A stretch of DNA of 62,103 bases from Anaerolineales bacterium. GTDB lineage: Bacteria; Chloroflexota; Anaerolineae; Anaerolineales; UBA11858. The position numbers and the translations under genes were made by a program. Positions 3,300 through 31,425 of the stretch are shown here, in pieces. Under the pieces are notes generated by a model. The model worked only from the letters and a program-made list of their open reading frames with translations. It made no database searches and was not told where the DNA came from. The DNA lies in assembly GCA_050049875.1 (NCBI GenBank), contig JASFVL010000002.1, positions 1-62,103 on the forward strand, in the 5' to 3' direction. Position 1 is the stretch's first letter. Every line of letters begins with the position of its first letter.

Positions 3300-5081
3300 T
3301 TAATCCCCCAATATCTCCCAACCTTCCCCGGTCATGATTACTTCCAGTTCCATCACCTCCGGCGGGGTGGTGCTGACCCACACGCGAGCCTTGCCGCCGC
3401 TGATCTGAATGCGCTGGGGCTGATACCCGTTCCCTAAGAGGACTTCCACAATCGAATAATATGTCTCCGCTAAGGGATTGATGCCAAAGGGATCGGGGAC
3501 TCCCTGATCCAGCGCGTCCAGTACAGCGTTCACCGCCTCTAGAGACCGATCGGTTTGCGCGTAGCGTCCCGCGCGCAGGTGCTCATCGGCATTCACCAAA
3601 AGTGTTTCCAAAGTCAAGTTCTCGATCCTAGTGGGGTGGCGCAGGTAATCGGCCACAATCTCGCGTTCGCGCATCTCCTTGGCGGACGGCAGCCAGGCGG
3701 TTAGGAAATACGCTGAGGGGTCCAGCACCTGCTGGTAGCGGCGCGCCGTGTCGAAGAATCCCACCGTCAGACGCACATCATCATATAGATCCGGGGTGAC
3801 GGTCTGCTGGCGGAGAGCCTCCAGGAAACGCTCCTCCAACTGGGCGAAGCTCAGGTCGAAGTGCTTCTCCAAGGCCACACTGATGGCTTGAGATGACTCT
3901 CCGCTGGGGTGAGGTCGGATATCACGGTAGAAGTCCGAAAAGGCTTCCCAACCCCAGGTCTCCACCATGTACTCCACCAGCGCACCAGCCTGCAGGTAGC
4001 CAATCTCGTGCTGGGACCGGTAGAAGTTGTCCGAAAGCGGCTCAAGATCCAAGTACCACCCTAGACCTAATACGGCCTCCTGCTCATCAGAGTCCAGCAG
4101 GGCTGCGGTGCGCGGAATGAGCGGCTCGGGTTTGAAATGACCCCCCGTCAGGTACACAGCTAAGCCTTCCACTAGCATGGAGGGGCGCAGTTCCCCTCCC
4201 AGCTGCCCGTCCAAAACGTGAACCAATTCGTGATGCAATACCATCCCCACGTCGCTTCCGGCGTAGTTGCGGTCCAGGTAAGAGACCGCTATCTCACCGC
4301 TGGCGAAGCCACCGTGCCCTAGGACGCGAGGCAGCAGGGTGACAGTGATCGGTTGGCTGAAATCAGGGCTCAGAAGGGAGGCCACATCCTCAGCCTGCGC
4401 GTCGACCTCCTCCAGCAACAGAGATAAATCGCGTTCTCCCGCTGTTTCAGTAACGTAGTACACCAGGCAGCAATCGCTGTCCGAGACAGCCCAGTGCGCC
4501 TGCGCCTGAGCTGGCGGCAGAGCGCTTTCAGATTGTAAGGTGACCGTTTGCTGCCAGTCAATTCCCTGGGGCTGGATCGAAAACGCCAGACTGTGAGCAC
4601 CCGCTTCCAGGTCTGAGGTATCCCACGCCCAGGTCAGGGTGGCTTGTCTGCGACCGCCGATACCGAAGAAACCAAATTCCACTTCCCCAAGCGAAGTTCC
4701 AGAGGGGATCAGACTCACCGAGACCTGACTTTCGTTTAGATCTAAGTCCTCCTGGGGTGGGGCAATGATCTCCAAGCTGACCTGGTCCCCAACGTACAAC
4801 TCGCCATCAGGGTGATAGCGCACGCTGAAACCGGCAGGGGGGGTCGAGGTGATCGTAGGCGCGAGGCTGGGGGTGAGTGTGGCTGGCGGAGAGGTGAAGG
4901 TTGGAGGTGGGGAGGTAAACGTCGGCGGAAACGAAGTGTGGCTGGGTGCAGACGTTTGGGTTGGGAGCGCCGTCTCCGAGGCGCGTGTGGTGTCCGTTGG
5001 CAGCGGTGTGGTGGGCGCCAGCGTCTGGCAGGCGCTTACCCCAAAGAGAAGCACCGTTAAGGCGAGCTGAAATTTTTGCAT
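3300..5081 (-). CDS. Secreted lipoprotein with HExxH (putative zinc metallopeptidase-like) motif
   Basis: 593 aa. Signal peptide with lipobox LFGVSAC, Pro/Thr-rich tandem PPTFTSPP repeats, and HHELVHVLD (HExxH) in the central domain. I do not recognise a precise family. Confidence 0.6.
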   Translation of the reverse strand: MQKFQLALTVLLFGVSACQTLAPTTPLPTDTTRASETALPTQTSAPSHTSFPPTFTSPPPTFTSPPATLTPSLAPTITSTPPAGFSVRYHPDGELYVGDQVSLEIIAPPQEDLDLNESQVSVSLIPSGTSLGEVEFGFFGIGGRRQATLTWAWDTSDLEAGAHSLAFSIQPQGIDWQQTVTLQSESALPPAQAQAHWAVSDSDCCLVYYVTETAGERDLSLLLEEVDAQAEDVASLLSPDFSQPITVTLLPRVLGHGGFASGEIAVSYLDRNYAGSDVGMVLHHELVHVLDGQLGGELRPSMLVEGLAVYLTGGHFKPEPLIPRTAALLDSDEQEAVLGLGWYLDLEPLSDNFYRSQHEIGYLQAGALVEYMVETWGWEAFSDFYRDIRPHPSGESSQAISVALEKHFDLSFAQLEERFLEALRQQTVTPDLYDDVRLTVGFFDTARRYQQVLDPSAYFLTAWLPSAKEMREREIVADYLRHPTRIENLTLETLLVNADEHLRAGRYAQTDRSLEAVNAVLDALDQGVPDPFGINPLAETYYSIVEVLLGNGYQPQRIQISGGKARVWVSTTPPEVMELEVIMTGEGWEILGD

Positions 5082-12080: not shown

Positions 12081-12917
12081 ATGCACAAACTCGTAATCTT
12101 GATTGAAGCTTTGGACGACTCATACCAACTGGACGAGAAGTGGCCCCAGTTCCTGCAATTGGCTGAGGACATGCCGGACTTGAAACGCGAGGCTACCATT
12201 CGAGTGAACACGCTCCTTTATGGGGATTGGAACGTGGGGATGATCCACGAACTGTATTTCGACTCGCTGGAGGAATTGCGTAAAGCGATGTCCTCACCCC
12301 AAGGGCAAGCTGCGGGTCAAATTCTCCAGCAGATCACCGGTGGTCGCGTGACGCTGCTCATCGCCGACCACAAAGAGGATACAATCGAGAATCTGCGCCG
12401 GCATAAAGGTGCAGCCGGGGAGATCTTAGAACTCACTCCCGAAGATTTGCAAGCATACATGCAAGCCCATGAGATCCAAGGCGAAATACTACAAATGGAC
12501 GCCCCTACCCCCACCGTGACGACCGCCGCCCAAGCAGTAGGCGCCAGCCCGGAGCAGATTGTAAAAACGCTACTCTTCATCGTTGACGACAAAGAGGGTG
12601 TGCTAGCCATCACCTGCGGCACGGTCACCGTAGACCGGCGCGTCATCGCTGGGCTTTACGATGTCGGGCGCAAAAAGGTCAGCCTAGCCTCCCCTGAGAA
12701 AGTCTTGGAGATGACTGGGTATCCGGTGGGCACCGTTCCTCCTTTCGGTCTCCACCAATCCTTACGCGCGTTGATGGACCCGCGCGTTTTGGAACACGAG
12801 CAAGTGTACGCCGGCGGTGGTTCCAAAAGAACTTTGGTGCGCACCTCACCCGAGGACATATTGCGAGCAGCCCAGGCTGAAATTATGGACTTGCACACAC
12901 CCCCTAGCGAAGACTAG
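12081..12917 (+). CDS. Fusion protein: EthD-like (TIGR02118-type) N-domain + YbaK/ProX-type aminoacyl-tRNA deacylase C-domain
   Basis: N-terminus has HELYFDSLEELRKAMSSPQGQAAGQILQQITGGRVTLLIADH. C-terminus has IVKTLLFIVDDKEGVLAITCG..TGYPVGTVPPFG..VYAGGGS. Confidence 0.7.
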   Translation: MHKLVILIEALDDSYQLDEKWPQFLQLAEDMPDLKREATIRVNTLLYGDWNVGMIHELYFDSLEELRKAMSSPQGQAAGQILQQITGGRVTLLIADHKEDTIENLRRHKGAAGEILELTPEDLQAYMQAHEIQGEILQMDAPTPTVTTAAQAVGASPEQIVKTLLFIVDDKEGVLAITCGTVTVDRRVIAGLYDVGRKKVSLASPEKVLEMTGYPVGTVPPFGLHQSLRALMDPRVLEHEQVYAGGGSKRTLVRTSPEDILRAAQAEIMDLHTPPSED

Positions 12918-16775: not shown

Positions 16776-17726
16776 ATGGCAAAGAACAACAAACCTCGAA
16801 TTCGTCTGCGTCTACCTTCCACGAGAGCCTTCACCCAAGAAGCTCGAAAGACCGAAGACTACTCTCTCTTCGATTTGCTGCACGGGTACGTCTACCTGCG
16901 CTGGCCCTATCTGTACATCGGCGTGGGCACAAGCGCGCACCCCTTGACGCGTTATCTGCGCCCTTTAGCTAATTTTTTGGGAAAGCTTTTCCTACCCCAA
17001 AGCGATAACGGCTCGCCCCGGGAGGATTTCGCCGACACCTACCACGGCAAAGTAGTCCCTTTGGAAGCCGCCACGCAGTTGGTCAGCGTCCAGGAGGACA
17101 TCCGTCTGACAGATCTGGAGCACATCATCCCTTACCAGCGCGCCCGCGACATCATCTTGAAGAACCCAGATCACATCGCCGTCCTGGAGTGTCCCTGCCG
17201 GGCATCCCGGGAGGATCCGTGCCTGCCCCTTGACGTCTGTCTGATCATTGGCGAACCCTTCGCCAGCCTGGTTACCGAGCACCATCCCGAACGTTCCCGC
17301 TGGATCAGCTCAGGGGAAGCAATCGAGATTCTGCAAGCGGAGCACGAGCGCGGCCACATCCACCACGCCTTTTTCAAGGATGCCATGCTGGAGCGCTTTT
17401 ACGCCATTTGCAACTGCTGTTCCTGCTGCTGCGGGGCGATGAAAGCCTGGCAGAATGGAACCCCTATGCTGTGCTCATCCGGGTACGTCAGCCATGTTGA
17501 TATCGATTTATGCATCCAATGTGACACGTGCAGCCAGCTGTGCCAATTTGAAGCTATCACCCGGGATGAATATGACTATCCCGTTGTGAACCAGGAAAAA
17601 TGTATGGGGTGCGGTGTTTGTGTGTCGCATTGTCCTGAAGAGGCTTTTTCATTGGTTAGGGATACATCCAAAAGTGAACCGTTGGTGATAGAAGATCTCA
17701 TCGCTGGTCAGAAGTTGTTAGATTAA
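16776..17726 (+). CDS. Cys-rich 4Fe-4S dicluster domain-containing protein
   Basis: Trimmed to ATG 16776. Contains ECPCR, CNCCSCCCG and two ferredoxin motifs (CIQCDTCSQLC and CMGCGVCVSHCP). Confidence 0.75.
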   Translation: MAKNNKPRIRLRLPSTRAFTQEARKTEDYSLFDLLHGYVYLRWPYLYIGVGTSAHPLTRYLRPLANFLGKLFLPQSDNGSPREDFADTYHGKVVPLEAATQLVSVQEDIRLTDLEHIIPYQRARDIILKNPDHIAVLECPCRASREDPCLPLDVCLIIGEPFASLVTEHHPERSRWISSGEAIEILQAEHERGHIHHAFFKDAMLERFYAICNCCSCCCGAMKAWQNGTPMLCSSGYVSHVDIDLCIQCDTCSQLCQFEAITRDEYDYPVVNQEKCMGCGVCVSHCPEEAFSLVRDTSKSEPLVIEDLIAGQKLLD

Positions 17727-17727
17727 A

Positions 17728-18173
17728 TTATCCACTTGTCATTCTATATATATTAAATAGTAGTCTTAGTAGAGGTTGGGGATATGTGGACAAATCGATT
17801 CTCGGCCCTTGAGATACCCATGTGTGGGGGAGTGGGCAAAGGTGATGCGTATATGTTAGGGGGGATAGGATGCCGTTTCTCCCCACCCTAGGTGGGGAGA
17901 AATTGTGCAAGGTGCGGACAATTTATCCACAGTTTTTGACGATTCCAATATATGGAGCTTAAAAAAGAGGACCCCCCATATATGGGGGTAGTGCATTTGT
18001 TGGAACATAGAACAAAAATGAGAGTTTTCCCCAGTTTGGGCTAGTTATCCACATATTTTCGCAAGTTATCCACAGGACAGAGCTTCTCGCAGAACATCCA
18101 TGTCACGAGAATACCCCTAATTGTGGGTTTGAAGTTCGCCGATGGCAGCCTGTTTCTGATTGACAAATCCACA
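17728..18173. promoter_or_regulatory. DnaA-box cluster (candidate oriC or DnaA-binding locus)
   Basis: Perfect TTATCCACA at 17923-17931, 18045-18053 and 18066-18074. TTATCCACt at 17728-17736, TTgTCCACA on the opposite strand at 17785-17793, and aaATCCACA at 18165-18173. AT-rich tract at 17741-17760. Confidence 0.55.
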
Positions 18174-18201
18174 GGTTAATGATATTCTATTACTAGAATA
18201 T
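18160..18201 (+). promoter_or_regulatory. Candidate padR promoter with overlapping 20-bp palindrome
   Basis: TTGACA (18160-18165), 17-nt spacer, TATTCT (18183-18188). Palindrome ATATTCTA-TTAC-TAGAATAT at 18182-18201. Confidence 0.4.
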
Positions 18202-18221
18202 TATAGTTAAAGGATATATGT

Positions 18222-18755
18222 GTGACGAATGCGGAACTGGCGGTTCTTGGCTTGGTTGCGGAGCAGCCTCGCCATGGCTATGAAATCGAGCAAGTCATTG
18301 CAGAGCGCGGCATGCGCGATTGGACGGAGGTGGGCTTCTCTTCCATATACTACCTGCTCAACAAGTTGGAAGAGGATGGGCTGGTGGAGAGCGAGCTTGA
18401 GAAAGCGGAGGGCCGCGGCCCTGCTCGTAAGGTGTACCACCTGACGCAAAAGGGCTGGCAAGCGCAAATCGAGGCCACGCTGGAGGCCCTCTCAACGCCC
18501 CAGCGGGGTCCGGTCCCTTTCCTCTTGGGCTTGTCCAACCTGCCCATCGTCCCCCGGGAGGGGGCTTTGGAAGCCCTGGACGCCCACATGGGACAGTTGG
18601 AGGAGCGCTGGCAGCACCTGGTGAAGCGGGTCGAAGAGCAGCGTCCCTTGCCGCCCTTTGTGGAAGCGATGTTTGACTACAGTCTGACGCTGGTTGAGGC
18701 TGAACTTAATTGGATGCGCAAATTCAAACGTGAAATGGAGGCTGGATATGTCTAA
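18222..18755 (+). CDS. PadR family transcriptional regulator
   Basis: 177 aa with GTG start. Begins ELAVLGLVAEQPRHGYEIEQVI..SSIYYLLNKLEEDGLVE. Confidence 0.9.
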   Translation: MTNAELAVLGLVAEQPRHGYEIEQVIAERGMRDWTEVGFSSIYYLLNKLEEDGLVESELEKAEGRGPARKVYHLTQKGWQAQIEATLEALSTPQRGPVPFLLGLSNLPIVPREGALEALDAHMGQLEERWQHLVKRVEEQRPLPPFVEAMFDYSLTLVEAELNWMRKFKREMEAGYV

Positions 18756-19365
18756 ATTTAATTTCAAGAAGGAAATGAAACCGTTGTACAACCCTCCTAA
18801 GGGCAAGTTCACCATGGTGGAGGTGCCGGAGATGAACTTCCTGATGGGCGATGGGGCTGGCGATCCCAACGACAATCCCCAGTTTCAGGCGATCACCGAA
18901 GCCCTGTATGGGTTGGCTTACACGATCAAATTCAAGTGCAAAGCGATGGAAAAGGACTTCGTCGTCCCGCCGCTGCAAGGTCTGTGGTGGATGGAGAACA
19001 TGGAGGAGTTCAGCCAGGAGCGCAAGGATGAGTGGCTGTGGACTTTGATGATCGCCATGCCCCCATGGGTTACCCCCGAGATGGTGGAAGAGTCGCGCCA
19101 AGAGGTGGCGCAAAAGAAAGACCTGCCCGCCTTACCCCAACTGCGCTTTGAGGGCTACCAGGAGGGGCTGTCCGTGCAGATCATGTACCTGGGAGCCTAC
19201 GCCGACGAGGGTCCAACCATCGCCGCTATGCACGATTTCATCGCGCAAGAGGGTTATGTCACCAACGGTAAGCACCACGAGATCTATTTGGGGGACCCGC
19301 GGCGCAACCCACCGGAGAAGCTCAAGACCGTCATCCGCCAACCGGTTAGCCCCACTTTCTCCTAG
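18748..19365 (+). CDS. GyrI-like small-molecule-binding domain protein
   Basis: Trimmed to ATG 18748, which overlaps the padR stop by 8 nt (translational coupling). Motifs FNFKKEMKPLYNP..MVEVPEMNFL and HHEIYLGDPRR. Confidence 0.8.
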   Translation: MSKFNFKKEMKPLYNPPKGKFTMVEVPEMNFLMGDGAGDPNDNPQFQAITEALYGLAYTIKFKCKAMEKDFVVPPLQGLWWMENMEEFSQERKDEWLWTLMIAMPPWVTPEMVEESRQEVAQKKDLPALPQLRFEGYQEGLSVQIMYLGAYADEGPTIAAMHDFIAQEGYVTNGKHHEIYLGDPRRNPPEKLKTVIRQPVSPTFS

Positions 19366-29020: not shown

Positions 29021-29087
29021 GGTTAAGGAAGCGCGGATCTGTGTCTTAAGCTCGATCCGGTTGGGCGGTTCTTGTTCGGAGATGGGA

Positions 29088-30789: not shown

Positions 30790-31425
30790 CTAAATCCAAC
30801 CCAGTGCCACCCCGAAAACCAGGATAGCGAGGATATCCACCGCGTAGATGATCCCCACCGTGATGGTTTTCTTCCTGACCGTATCCATATCGTGCACCCA
30901 GAAGGAGACCAGGAAGAAGTGCAGGTAGCCGAAGAGGAAGATCAACCAGGGAGAGTTGGCGTCCCACCAGGGCCAATCCCAGGTCAGCGCCCCGACTGCG
31001 TTCAGCAGCACTTCCACAAAAACGGCAAACGCTGACCCGGCGATGGCGATGAACAAACGGTTGGGGATCCCCAACACCTTGATGCCTTTATCGGGGGGCA
31101 GCATCTTGCCGAAGGCGATCCCGGCAATGGCGAACATGAAGCTAATTTCGATGTTCAACCCGATCAGGATCAGGTAGGCTGTGTCGCCCGGAGCTCCCCA
31201 TACCGGGGCTTCACCCGAAAAGTGGAAGAACAGCGAGTTCCAAATCTCGTTGAACCAGTCCATCCCCCAAAAAGCCAAACCGGCGAAGACCAGGTTCCAG
31301 TTGCGCCGCTCGACCTCCACGGCGTAGATGTAGACTACGAAAGCGAAGAGCGGGATGACGTACCATTGGAATTGGCTCCCATCCCGCAGGATGCTGAGGG
31401 CTTGTGTGGCAGATTCGGTAGGCAT
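30790..31425 (-). CDS. Integral membrane protein, unknown function
   Basis: 211 aa with about 6 hydrophobic helices and Trp-rich loops (WDWPWWDANSPW). Lies 27 nt downstream of the HMG-CoA reductase gene on the same strand. Confidence 0.65.
   Translation of the reverse strand: MPTESATQALSILRDGSQFQWYVIPLFAFVVYIYAVEVERRNWNLVFAGLAFWGMDWFNEIWNSLFFHFSGEAPVWGAPGDTAYLILIGLNIEISFMFAIAGIAFGKMLPPDKGIKVLGIPNRLFIAIAGSAFAVFVEVLLNAVGALTWDWPWWDANSPWLIFLFGYLHFFLVSFWVHDMDTVRKKTITVGIIYAVDILAILVFGVALGWI

Follow-up and report, generated by a model that had tools for sequence, protein, structure and literature searches.

A conserved DnaA-box element remote from dnaA as the probable chromosomal origin of an Anaerolineales bacterium, with candidate NrdR boxes inside it

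A gene-free gap of 495 bp (positions 17727-18221) in a 62,103-nucleotide stretch of DNA from an Anaerolineales bacterium contains a cluster of DnaA boxes. This stretch, hereafter referred to as the window, makes up all of contig C552 in a metagenome-assembled genome (MAG) of 579 contigs and 4.62 Mb that is 88% complete. The source assembly is designated G000, and the genomes with which it was compared carry codes of the same kind (G004, G008, G036 and others). On the basis of its architecture, its conservation and the polarity of the GC skew around it, we consider it highly probable (at about 0.85) that the element at 17728-18129 within this gap is the chromosomal replication origin (oriC), that it is DnaA-dependent, and that it is physically apart from dnaA. 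The palindromes embedded in the element are likely to be genuine binding sites of the nucleotide sensor NrdR. That NrdR, which is known solely as an ATP/dATP-sensing repressor of RNR genes, would be a direct regulator of replication initiation in the Anaerolineae, with oriC, dnaA and nrdR-RNR (RNR standing for ribonucleotide reductase) forming one regulon, is a more tentative proposal. An earlier note, made from the sequence of the window, had listed the locus as a candidate oriC. This reading is supported by the present analysis, but the note had overlooked both the DnaA-trio module of the published type termed BUS (17758-17793) and the class-wide conservation of the element.

The right-hand part of the element is an array of three direct boxes on the + strand, consisting of the variant TTTTCCCCA at 18025..18033 and two perfect DnaA boxes, TTATCCACA, at 18045..18053 and 18066..18074, with start-to-start distances of 20 bp and 21 bp, respectively. 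The first of these boxes reads TTWTCMMCA in all relatives, the second retains an invariant TTnTCCACA in 19 genomes, and the third is the most conserved site of the whole element, being TTATCCACA in 18 of the 19 family genomes and in most members of the class. A further perfect box at 17923..17931 (+) is only semi-conserved, with TTWTCCAC in some relatives. The left flank carries TTATCCACT (17728..17736, +), a box with one mismatch that points to the AT-rich tract described below and that corresponds to a box-like TTWTCCMCA in most relatives. An inverted pair of box-like sites, TTTCTCCCCA and TGGGGAGAAA separated by 7 nt (17876..17902), has TTCTCCCCA on both strands; the family consensus retains the pair as TTTTnTCCCCA...TGGGGAnAAA, and DnaA may bind it with low affinity. 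In total, three perfect boxes and two boxes with one mismatch are found within 347 bp of the gap.

The earlier note had regarded this clustering as too dense to be due to chance, and the genome-wide numbers bear this out: perfect boxes occur 61 times in the entire 4.62-Mb assembly, about 1.2e-4 clusters of three boxes within 152 bp are expected genome-wide, and the gap is the best-scoring DnaA-box cluster of the assembly. The note had also reasoned that equivalent clusters at many promoters would refute an origin here, and only one other comparable cluster was encountered, a three-box array on contig C475. Its individual site calls were reproduced as well. The perfect boxes at 17923, 18045 and 18066 are indeed all on the + strand, the near matches at 17728 (+), 17785 (-) and 18165 have 1, 1 and 2 mismatches, and the AT-rich tract (17741-17760), the palindrome CCCCCATATATGGGGG (17973-17988) and the 495-bp gap are located where the note had placed them.

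The left-hand part of the element has the layout of an unwinding module. It starts with the AT-rich tract at 17741..17757, a candidate DNA unwinding element (DUE), which is conserved at this place in all aligned genomes; the 20-mer at 17741-17760 is the second least stable 20-bp duplex of the window. Next comes a tract of DnaA-trios on the + strand, TAG TAG TCT TAG TAG (17758..17772), which reads GAT GAT TCT GAT GAT in the 3' to 5' direction and is the predicted track of a single-strand DnaA filament. The two proximal TAG trios are invariant in 19 genomes. The trios are followed by the 4-nt spacer AGGT (17773..17776), which is GGGn in most relatives and equivalent to the GC cluster of a BUS, and then by two boxes on the minus strand. 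The nearer one, ATATCCCCA (17777..17785), is a degenerate second box with 2 mismatches that lies 4 bp from the first trio and abuts the next box, TTGTCCACA (17785..17793), which has 1 mismatch and points to the trios. In the 19-genome alignment GTGGA of the latter box is invariant, and TGGGGATA at the degenerate box is nearly so. The spacer between TTGTCCACA and the first trio thus amounts to 12 bp and holds the degenerate second box and the G-rich 4-mer. Read along the minus strand, the order is TTGTCCACA, TATCCCCAACCT (12 bp), CTA CTA AGA CTA CTA, and then TTTAATATATATAG.

According to the published BUS rule, a DnaA box with at most 2 mismatches is separated by a spacer of at most 16 bp (with a peak at 10-13 bp) from at least three 3'-NAN-5' trios, the consensus trio being 3'-GAT-5' (Pelliciari et al. 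2021, PMC8287927). In the published systems AT-rich DNA lies past the trios, and DnaA oligomerises on the 5' tail that bears them. Both TTGTCCACA and ATATCCCCA have no more than 2 mismatches and are no more than 16 bp from the trios. The trios are also on the strand that a BUS demands, since the 5' tail leads away from the boxes and the AT-rich DNA is distal.

Two conserved blocks of the gap were detected by blastn in 24 of 41 related genomes, and the full element could be aligned in 19 loci from many genera. The consensus starts on the left with the box-like TTWTCCMCA, the AT-rich tract, TAGTAGTCTTAGTAG, GGGn and TGGGGATATGTGGAnAA, the last of which comprises TTnTCCACA plus the degenerate second box on the minus strand. 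It continues with palindromes of the CCCCAnATATnGGGG type, the inverted TTnTCCCCA...TGGGGAnAA and a strongly conserved CCCCCATATATGGGGG, and it ends with the direct boxes TTWTCMMCA-N11-TTnTCCACA-N12-TTATCCACA, located about 230-290 bp from the unwinding module. The sequence between the blocks is variable, yet 11 of the 19 genomes have a distance of 341-345 bp between block 1 and the end of block 2. A model of block 1 (R1) has matches in 142 of 301 genomes of the class, which represent 95 of 176 genera; the match is single-copy in 136 of the 142 positive genomes, and G000 has one match. The two blocks are also neighbours in the closed genomes, with their arrangement unchanged. When named genomes were scanned with the exact pattern, about 60 of the 80 matches listed were records of Anaerolineales, Anaerolineae or Chloroflexota, among them MAGs of Leptolinea, Bellilinea and Anaerolinea. 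The exact BUS pattern TAGTAG-N4-TGGGGAWAWGTGGA was also seen in some records of Selenomonadaceae, cyanobacteria, Actinomycetota and Clostridia, and these matches outside the Chloroflexota may be the origins of those organisms. One family, f49 (G114:C1 and G155:C2), has block 1, with the best three-box match about 200-250 kb away, and the origin may be organised differently there.

The GC skew, which the earlier note had named as a check, has the polarity of an origin at this element. The cumulative skew of the window falls as far as 17423, which is about 300 bp outside the gap, and rises thereafter; left of this minimum the skew is -0.062 and right of it +0.027, and the T/A skew flips as well. 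In G008 the homologous element is located at 443.7 kb of a 1.30-Mb contig, for which the skew was determined from sampled 20-kb pieces, nine at 0-443 kb and six consecutive ones at 444-604 kb. All nine pieces on the left were negative (-0.043 to -0.084) and all six on the right were positive (+0.033 to +0.084), the sign changing from negative to positive between 443.0 and 444.0 kb, which is at the homologous element. Around dnaA of G008 the skew was checked and no switch was found. Most other large contigs of G000 are monotonic in skew, including the one with dnaA. A 20-kb piece of G008 inside the positive-skew replichore (C2:624001-644000) has a skew of -0.051 and a GC content of 45.5%, and is probably an island or an inversion.

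As the earlier note had remarked, there is no dnaA nearby: it is absent from the 62-kb window, and in G000 it is located on contig C406, divergent from dnaK. The note had further asked whether a second box cluster exists at dnaA, and none was found around dnaA of G000. The same separation is seen in the relatives, as dnaA is on a different contig than the element in all 8 of the 8 draft relatives tested, and the distance between the two is 166 kb in G038, 352 kb in G143, about 640 kb in G189, 702 kb in G282 and about 1.8 Mb in G158. The usual adjacency of oriC to dnaA/dnaN, which is typical and not obligatory, is thus not seen here. The one exception is the closed 6.37-Mb genome G036, in which the module immediately follows a full-length dnaA at its 3' end, and a gene for a holB-type (delta-prime) clamp-loader subunit is located upstream of this dnaA. 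This dnaA-adjacent placement is the classical position, and it is presumably ancestral. The idea of an oriC placed away from dnaA/dnaN is therefore supported by the skew, by the conserved single-copy module, by the BUS, and by a homologue in the DoriC database.

This homologue is the predicted oriC of Anaerolinea thermophila UNI-1 (NC_014960), DoriC entry ORI94030346, which was used by Pelliciari et al. 2021 (PMC8287927, Table S2). Bases 460-421 of G349 (3,532,378 bp) are exactly complementary to the string given there as the BUS of UNI-1 (460-420), and the G349 locus aligns with our element. The possibility that the UNI-1 DoriC origin (420-460) is beside dnaA and contradicts the element was rejected, since dnaA is at 2.14 Mb and the locus is a homologue. 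The G349/UNI-1 locus shares with the window the trio tract, a GGGG spacer, tandem TGTGGATATGTGGA boxes, the CCCCCCGTATATAGGGGGG palindrome, and three direct TTATCCACA boxes with a spacing of 20-21 bp. The DoriC entry is a computational prediction for a single genome, and NrdR boxes are not noted there. Because the UNI-1 homologue is already a predicted oriC, the origin itself is of an already known sort. In the published BUS call for UNI-1 the trinucleotide tract is read on the opposite strand, from the TTTTCCCCA box on the left and across a 16-bp spacer, at a low score of 7 (PMC8287927). Unlike this call, the class-wide alignment favours the right-hand inverted boxes with a 12-bp spacer, which corrects the published A. 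thermophila call as to both strand and boxes.

Several observations weigh against an origin at this element, or at least against parts of this conclusion. The right-arm skew of the window is flat or slightly negative at 32-46 kb. In the closed genome G158 (4.40 Mb) the skew changes from -0.031 to +0.042 across the element, with +0.035 and -0.045 at 1.5 Mb and 4.0 Mb, respectively; it is weak and noisy and weakly consistent with an origin, and at dnaA of G158 nothing clear is seen in the skew. The run of trios beside the spacer consists of just two TAGs, followed by a conserved non-NAN triplet, TCT, so that at least three NAN trios are reached only if the distal run, located 13 bp from the weaker box, is counted; in G004, G017 and G036 there are three unbroken proximal trios. 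Gene orientation around the gap does not diverge clearly, as had been noted before. In addition, the composition of the bin is uneven: contig GC ranges from 40 to 60% with a median of 50%, and is 55.6% for the window and 42.8% for C406, the contig with dnaA, ftsZ and nrdR. With a bin of such mixed composition, the location of dnaA elsewhere rests mainly on the relatives, as the bin alone cannot prove distance.

Between the two DnaA modules the element carries sequences that resemble NrdR boxes. These have been described as partly palindromic 16-mers with conserved C4, A6, A8, T9, T11 and G13, which occur in pairs with linkers of mostly 15-16 bp, 26-27 bp being tolerated and 14 bp being found for the T. 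maritima nrdJ boxes (PMC13584703). Box A, TTCCAATATATGGAGC (17943..17958), and box B, CCCCCATATATGGGGG (17973..17988), both match at 6/6 positions and are separated by a 14-bp linker. Box B is the 16-bp palindrome that had been recorded correctly before, its likely identity as an NrdR box having been overlooked. There is also a degenerate NrdR-like pair at 17815..17861, with TACCCATGTGTGGGGG at 17815-17830 (5/6), a 15-bp linker and a partner at 17846-17861 (4/6), the equivalent of which is better preserved in G009, G011 and G016. A further NrdR-like box, CCCCTAATTGTGGGTT (18114..18129; 5/6), is located where a CCCCAnATnTGGGG-like site recurs in several relatives.

Three sets of data argue that these palindromes are likely to be NrdR sites. 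Firstly, a box pair with at least 11 of 12 positions matched and a linker of 14-16 bp is present in 19 of 27 origin elements, compared to 17 of 5400 shuffles (0.3%), and in 15 genomes it is at the identical place with a 14-bp linker. The 14-nt core of box B is the only perfect CCCCATATATGGGG in the 4.6-Mb assembly, which has five copies at no more than 1 mismatch. Secondly, the same type of box is found at nrdR. In G000, C406:4441-4890 encodes NrdR (Pfam: Zn-ribbon plus ATP-cone) and is followed by ribonucleotide reductase, and the nrdR promoter has a tandem site composed of a 5/6 box at 4373, a 15-bp linker and CCCCCACATATGGGGG at C406:4404-4419, 21 bp upstream of the open reading frame (ORF). 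This proximal box recurs in the nrdR promoters of relatives, as in G011 (CCCCCATATATGGGGG) and G006 (CCCCTATATATGGGGG). Thirdly, a copy of the box is present about 200-400 bp upstream of dnaA in G000 (C406:29084) and in 7 of 12 relatives, whereas about 0.013 would be expected per locus.

A number of further copies were observed. The 811-bp divergent region between dnaA and dnaK (C406:28692-29502) contains the 6/6 box CCCCAATATATGGGGG at 29084 with a weaker partner 15 bp upstream, as well as TCCCCA-type box-like inverted repeats that resemble those of the origin. Two convergent ORFs on contig C241 of G000 flank a further pair (31310-31356), in which CTCCCATATATGGTGA and GGGCAATATATAGGGG, both 6/6, are separated by a 15-bp linker. 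The boxes CCGGCATATATGGGGG and TCCCCCATATACAGGG, also with a 15-bp linker, are located at C93:170-216 between a tRNA gene and a tyrosine-integrase-like ORF, and this locus may be an integrative element under NrdR control. A CArG-box/MADS-type binder for CC(A/T)6GG had been considered and was abandoned when the NrdR match became apparent, and the pattern CCCCNATATNGGGG proved to be off-register and uninformative.

The alternative is that the locus is oriC while its CCCCATATATGGGG-type palindromes bind some other dimeric factor, or form a hairpin, a cruciform or a minus-strand terminator; the likeness to NrdR boxes would then be a coincidence or reflect a shared bendable motif with an AT core. 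We regard this as rather unlikely, although a number of points favour it and count against NrdR sites. The linker of the pair is 14 bp instead of the predominant 15-16 bp, but Thermotoga nrdJ boxes with a 14-bp linker have been reported (PMC13584703). Taken by itself, the six-position criterion is lax, with 1337 matches in the genome; the pairing in 19 of 27 origins and the occurrence of the same 16-mer as the promoter-proximal box of the tandem nrdR operator, in G000 and relatives, speak against coincidence. On the minus strand the palindrome is followed by CCTCTTTTTT and scores terminator-like in G000, but the A/T run beside the palindrome is unconserved and covariation is absent beyond a 4-bp stem. 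The two copies between the tRNA and integrase genes on C93 also favour a factor other than NrdR.

The origins of G008, G014, G024, G038 and G143 have no NrdR boxes, and because there are lineages that have the origin without them, the boxes are not essential to origin function. G008, G014, G024 and G038 also lack the box upstream of dnaA, and G008 and G014, which belong to genus g9 and encode NrdR, lack it upstream of nrdR too. This joint absence from oriC, dnaA and nrdR in G008 and G014 argues for NrdR as the binder, and genus g9 (G008, G014, G024) may have lost or changed the NrdR operator. The literature offers no account of NrdR boxes within an origin that we could find, which is a point in favour of another binder, and as far as could be found an NrdR operator both inside oriC and upstream of dnaA is undescribed; clustering of nrdR genes with replication genes has been reported. 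Rodionov and Gelfand are said to have described, in 2005, candidate boxes upstream of a few replication genes.

The remaining alternatives concern the origin itself. It is very unlikely that the locus is a datA-like, DARS-like or other secondary DnaA-box cluster with the true origin elsewhere, in an unassembled part of the genome or near dnaA. The distance of the locus from dnaA and a bin that is merely 88% complete would fit such a reading, as would the existence in the class of secondary three-box arrays with a 21-bp spacing. However, a switch of origin polarity exactly at the G008 homologue and a V-shaped minimum in the window are not accounted for by it, a BUS with trios and DUE is no feature of datA or DARS, and the element is single-copy and conserved class-wide. 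Moreover, this module is found immediately beside dnaA in G036, the dnaA loci of G000 and G008 have neither a box cluster nor a skew switch, and DoriC puts the UNI-1 origin at the homologue. The readings as a datA-like, DARS-like or DnaA-regulated promoter locus, which the earlier note had kept as fallbacks, have thus become unlikely. The array on C475 of G000 (12464-12514) consists of three perfect TTATCCACA boxes on the minus strand, exactly 21 bp apart, in a 225-bp gap between two minus-strand ORFs for membrane proteins, and secondary three-box arrays were also seen as partial R2 matches in G038, G118, G158, G169 and G202. Such arrays may be DnaA-titrating clusters or DnaA-regulated promoters. 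The array on C475, a 16-kb contig, was rejected as an alternative origin because it does not match the conserved element and GAT-type trios were not seen in its sequence.

Equally little speaks for a complex promoter or operator of flanking genes (a padR-GyrI-like or an ArsR-MFS operon) at which DnaA and NrdR would act as transcription factors, a reading that we consider highly improbable. Both proteins are known transcription regulators, and a sigma-70-like promoter with a palindromic operator is indeed present just upstream of padR, at 18160..18207 (+; TTGACA-17-TATTCT). This promoter with its operator is particular to G000; it is situated beyond the conserved blocks and does not belong to the origin, and no promoter-like site overlaps the conserved boxes. 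The 20-bp perfect palindrome ATATTCTATTACTAGAATAT in this promoter (18182-18201) is probably a PadR auto-operator and is not conserved in relatives, and the 2-mismatch box AAATCCACA (18165-18173), which overlaps the -35 region, is likewise unconserved. In G000 the gap is bounded by the stop codon of a Fer4 (4Fe-4S protein) ORF at 17726 and the GTG start codon of padR at 18222. Both genes are missing from the flanks in the relatives, although the sequence and length of the element are retained there. The neighbours in the relatives include enoyl-CoA hydratase and GlgC, an Mrp antiporter and old yellow enzyme (OYE), a TIM-barrel protein or histidine kinase together with ArsR-MFS, and, in a single genome, dnaA. 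Since the flanking genes change in this way, the element is not the padR control region. A gene for a conserved structured non-coding RNA, which the strong non-coding conservation across genera might suggest, is extremely improbable, as a scan of 17000-19000 gave no Rfam match at E<=1, RNAalifold on block 2 gave only the 4-bp palindrome stem with essentially no covariation, and the conserved columns are exactly the DnaA boxes, the trios and the NrdR boxes.

The other genes of the window, such as those for RecD2, holA and a tRNA methyltransferase, are typical of a chromosome. The spread of GC content in G000 means either that the genome is unusually heterogeneous or that the bin mixes related organisms; the presence of the same lineage-specific NrdR box on C552 and C406 argues for relatedness of these two contigs. 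We also looked for DciA (PF05258) in the G000 bin and did not find it, and a weak second match to a DnaA-like AAA+ protein was noticed on contig C360.

From the architecture, the conservation and single-copy status of the element, the skew polarity and the identity of its palindromes with the boxes of the nrdR promoter, we infer the following course of events. DnaA would fill the three same-orientation boxes at 18025, 18045 and 18066, whose spacing of 20-21 bp, or about two helical turns, places them on one face of the helix, and would also occupy weaker sites, namely those of the TCCCCA type at 17877-17901 and the box at 17923. A filament of ATP-DnaA would then extend from the inverted boxes at 17777-17793 over the G-rich 4-nt spacer to the + strand trios (3'-GAT-5') at 17758-17772, melt the adjoining AT-rich DNA at 17741-17757, and allow the helicase to be loaded there. 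The NrdR tetramer loaded with dATP/ATP, a sharp DNA bender, probably binds the tandem operator, which is situated halfway between the two DnaA modules, and probably also the sites upstream of dnaA and nrdR-RNR, which would tie initiation to the nucleotide pool. NrdR could either hinder communication between the modules (repression) or join them through the bend, thus licensing initiation at sufficient levels of deoxynucleotides (dNTPs); the sign of this effect is undecidable from sequence. The fixed length of about 343 bp would fit a phased or looped complex. Taken together, the arrangement suggests a link of nucleotide supply to the start of replication.

The present data assign a probable oriC to the Anaerolineae, a large and mostly uncultured class, in which separation of the origin from dnaA is the rule. 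The sequence model locates the origin in draft MAGs and helps growth-rate estimates of the peak-to-trough type. The adjustment of initiation to dNTP supply has been explained mainly by the action of DnaA on the nrd genes of E. coli. If our proposal is true, a nucleotide sensor on the origin would be a reverse and direct link compared to this control of nrd genes by DnaA.

The unwinding module described here is similar to that of Bacillus subtilis (boxes 6/7, GC cluster, trios and DUE; Richardson 2016/2019, Pelliciari 2021), as order, strand and spacing are alike, with a spacer of 12 bp as against the published BUS peak of 10-13 bp. Unlike in B. subtilis, dnaA and dnaN do not flank the element, a conserved TCT breaks the run of trios, and the two boxes abut or share one base. 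Abutting boxes are also a feature of the Geobacter entry in the published list (AATAGGGGT, ATAGGTGT, CGGG, GAT GAC...), and both this entry and that of Deinococcus (AATAGGTGT, CAAAGGTGT, CGGG, AAT GAT...) have the same geometry as the module in the window, which in the 3' to 5' notation of that list reads AACAGGTGT, ATAGGGGT, TGGA, GAT GAT TCT GAT GAT AAA (PMC8287927, Table S2). On the top strand of the C. difficile origin, boxes and a GC cluster are followed by CTACTACTATTACTACTA and then the DUE, and its trio tract, 5'-CACCTACTACTATTACTACTATGA-3', has the same order and strand as the minus strand here. The candidate NrdR sites, in turn, resemble the paired 16-bp boxes in the RNR-promoter operators of S. 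coelicolor nrdRJ, E. coli nrdAB, nrdHIEF and nrdDG, and T. maritima nrdJ (PMC13584703, PMC9110341). Unlike these known NrdR operators, the pair is located inside a probable replication origin with no RNR gene near.

With respect to overall organisation, there is a parallel in E. coli oriC, where the architectural and regulatory proteins IHF, Fis and SeqA are bound between DnaA sites. It is likewise remote from dnaA, with opposed DnaA-box arrays and a site for a non-DnaA protein inside, and the motif of this site recurs at the dnaA promoter, which is SeqA/GATC in E. coli and the NrdR-type box here. Unlike in E. coli, the candidate accessory factor would be a nucleotide sensor, and there are no GATC clusters or 13-mer repeats. 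MtrA of Mycobacterium tuberculosis and Spo0A of Bacillus subtilis bind both oriC and the dnaA promoter, and CtrA binds in the Caulobacter origin. As with these proteins, sites that may belong to one regulator are present in the origin and upstream of dnaA; whereas MtrA, Spo0A and CtrA are phosphorylation-controlled regulators of the cell cycle or of development, NrdR senses the ATP/dATP ratio directly via its ATP-cone.

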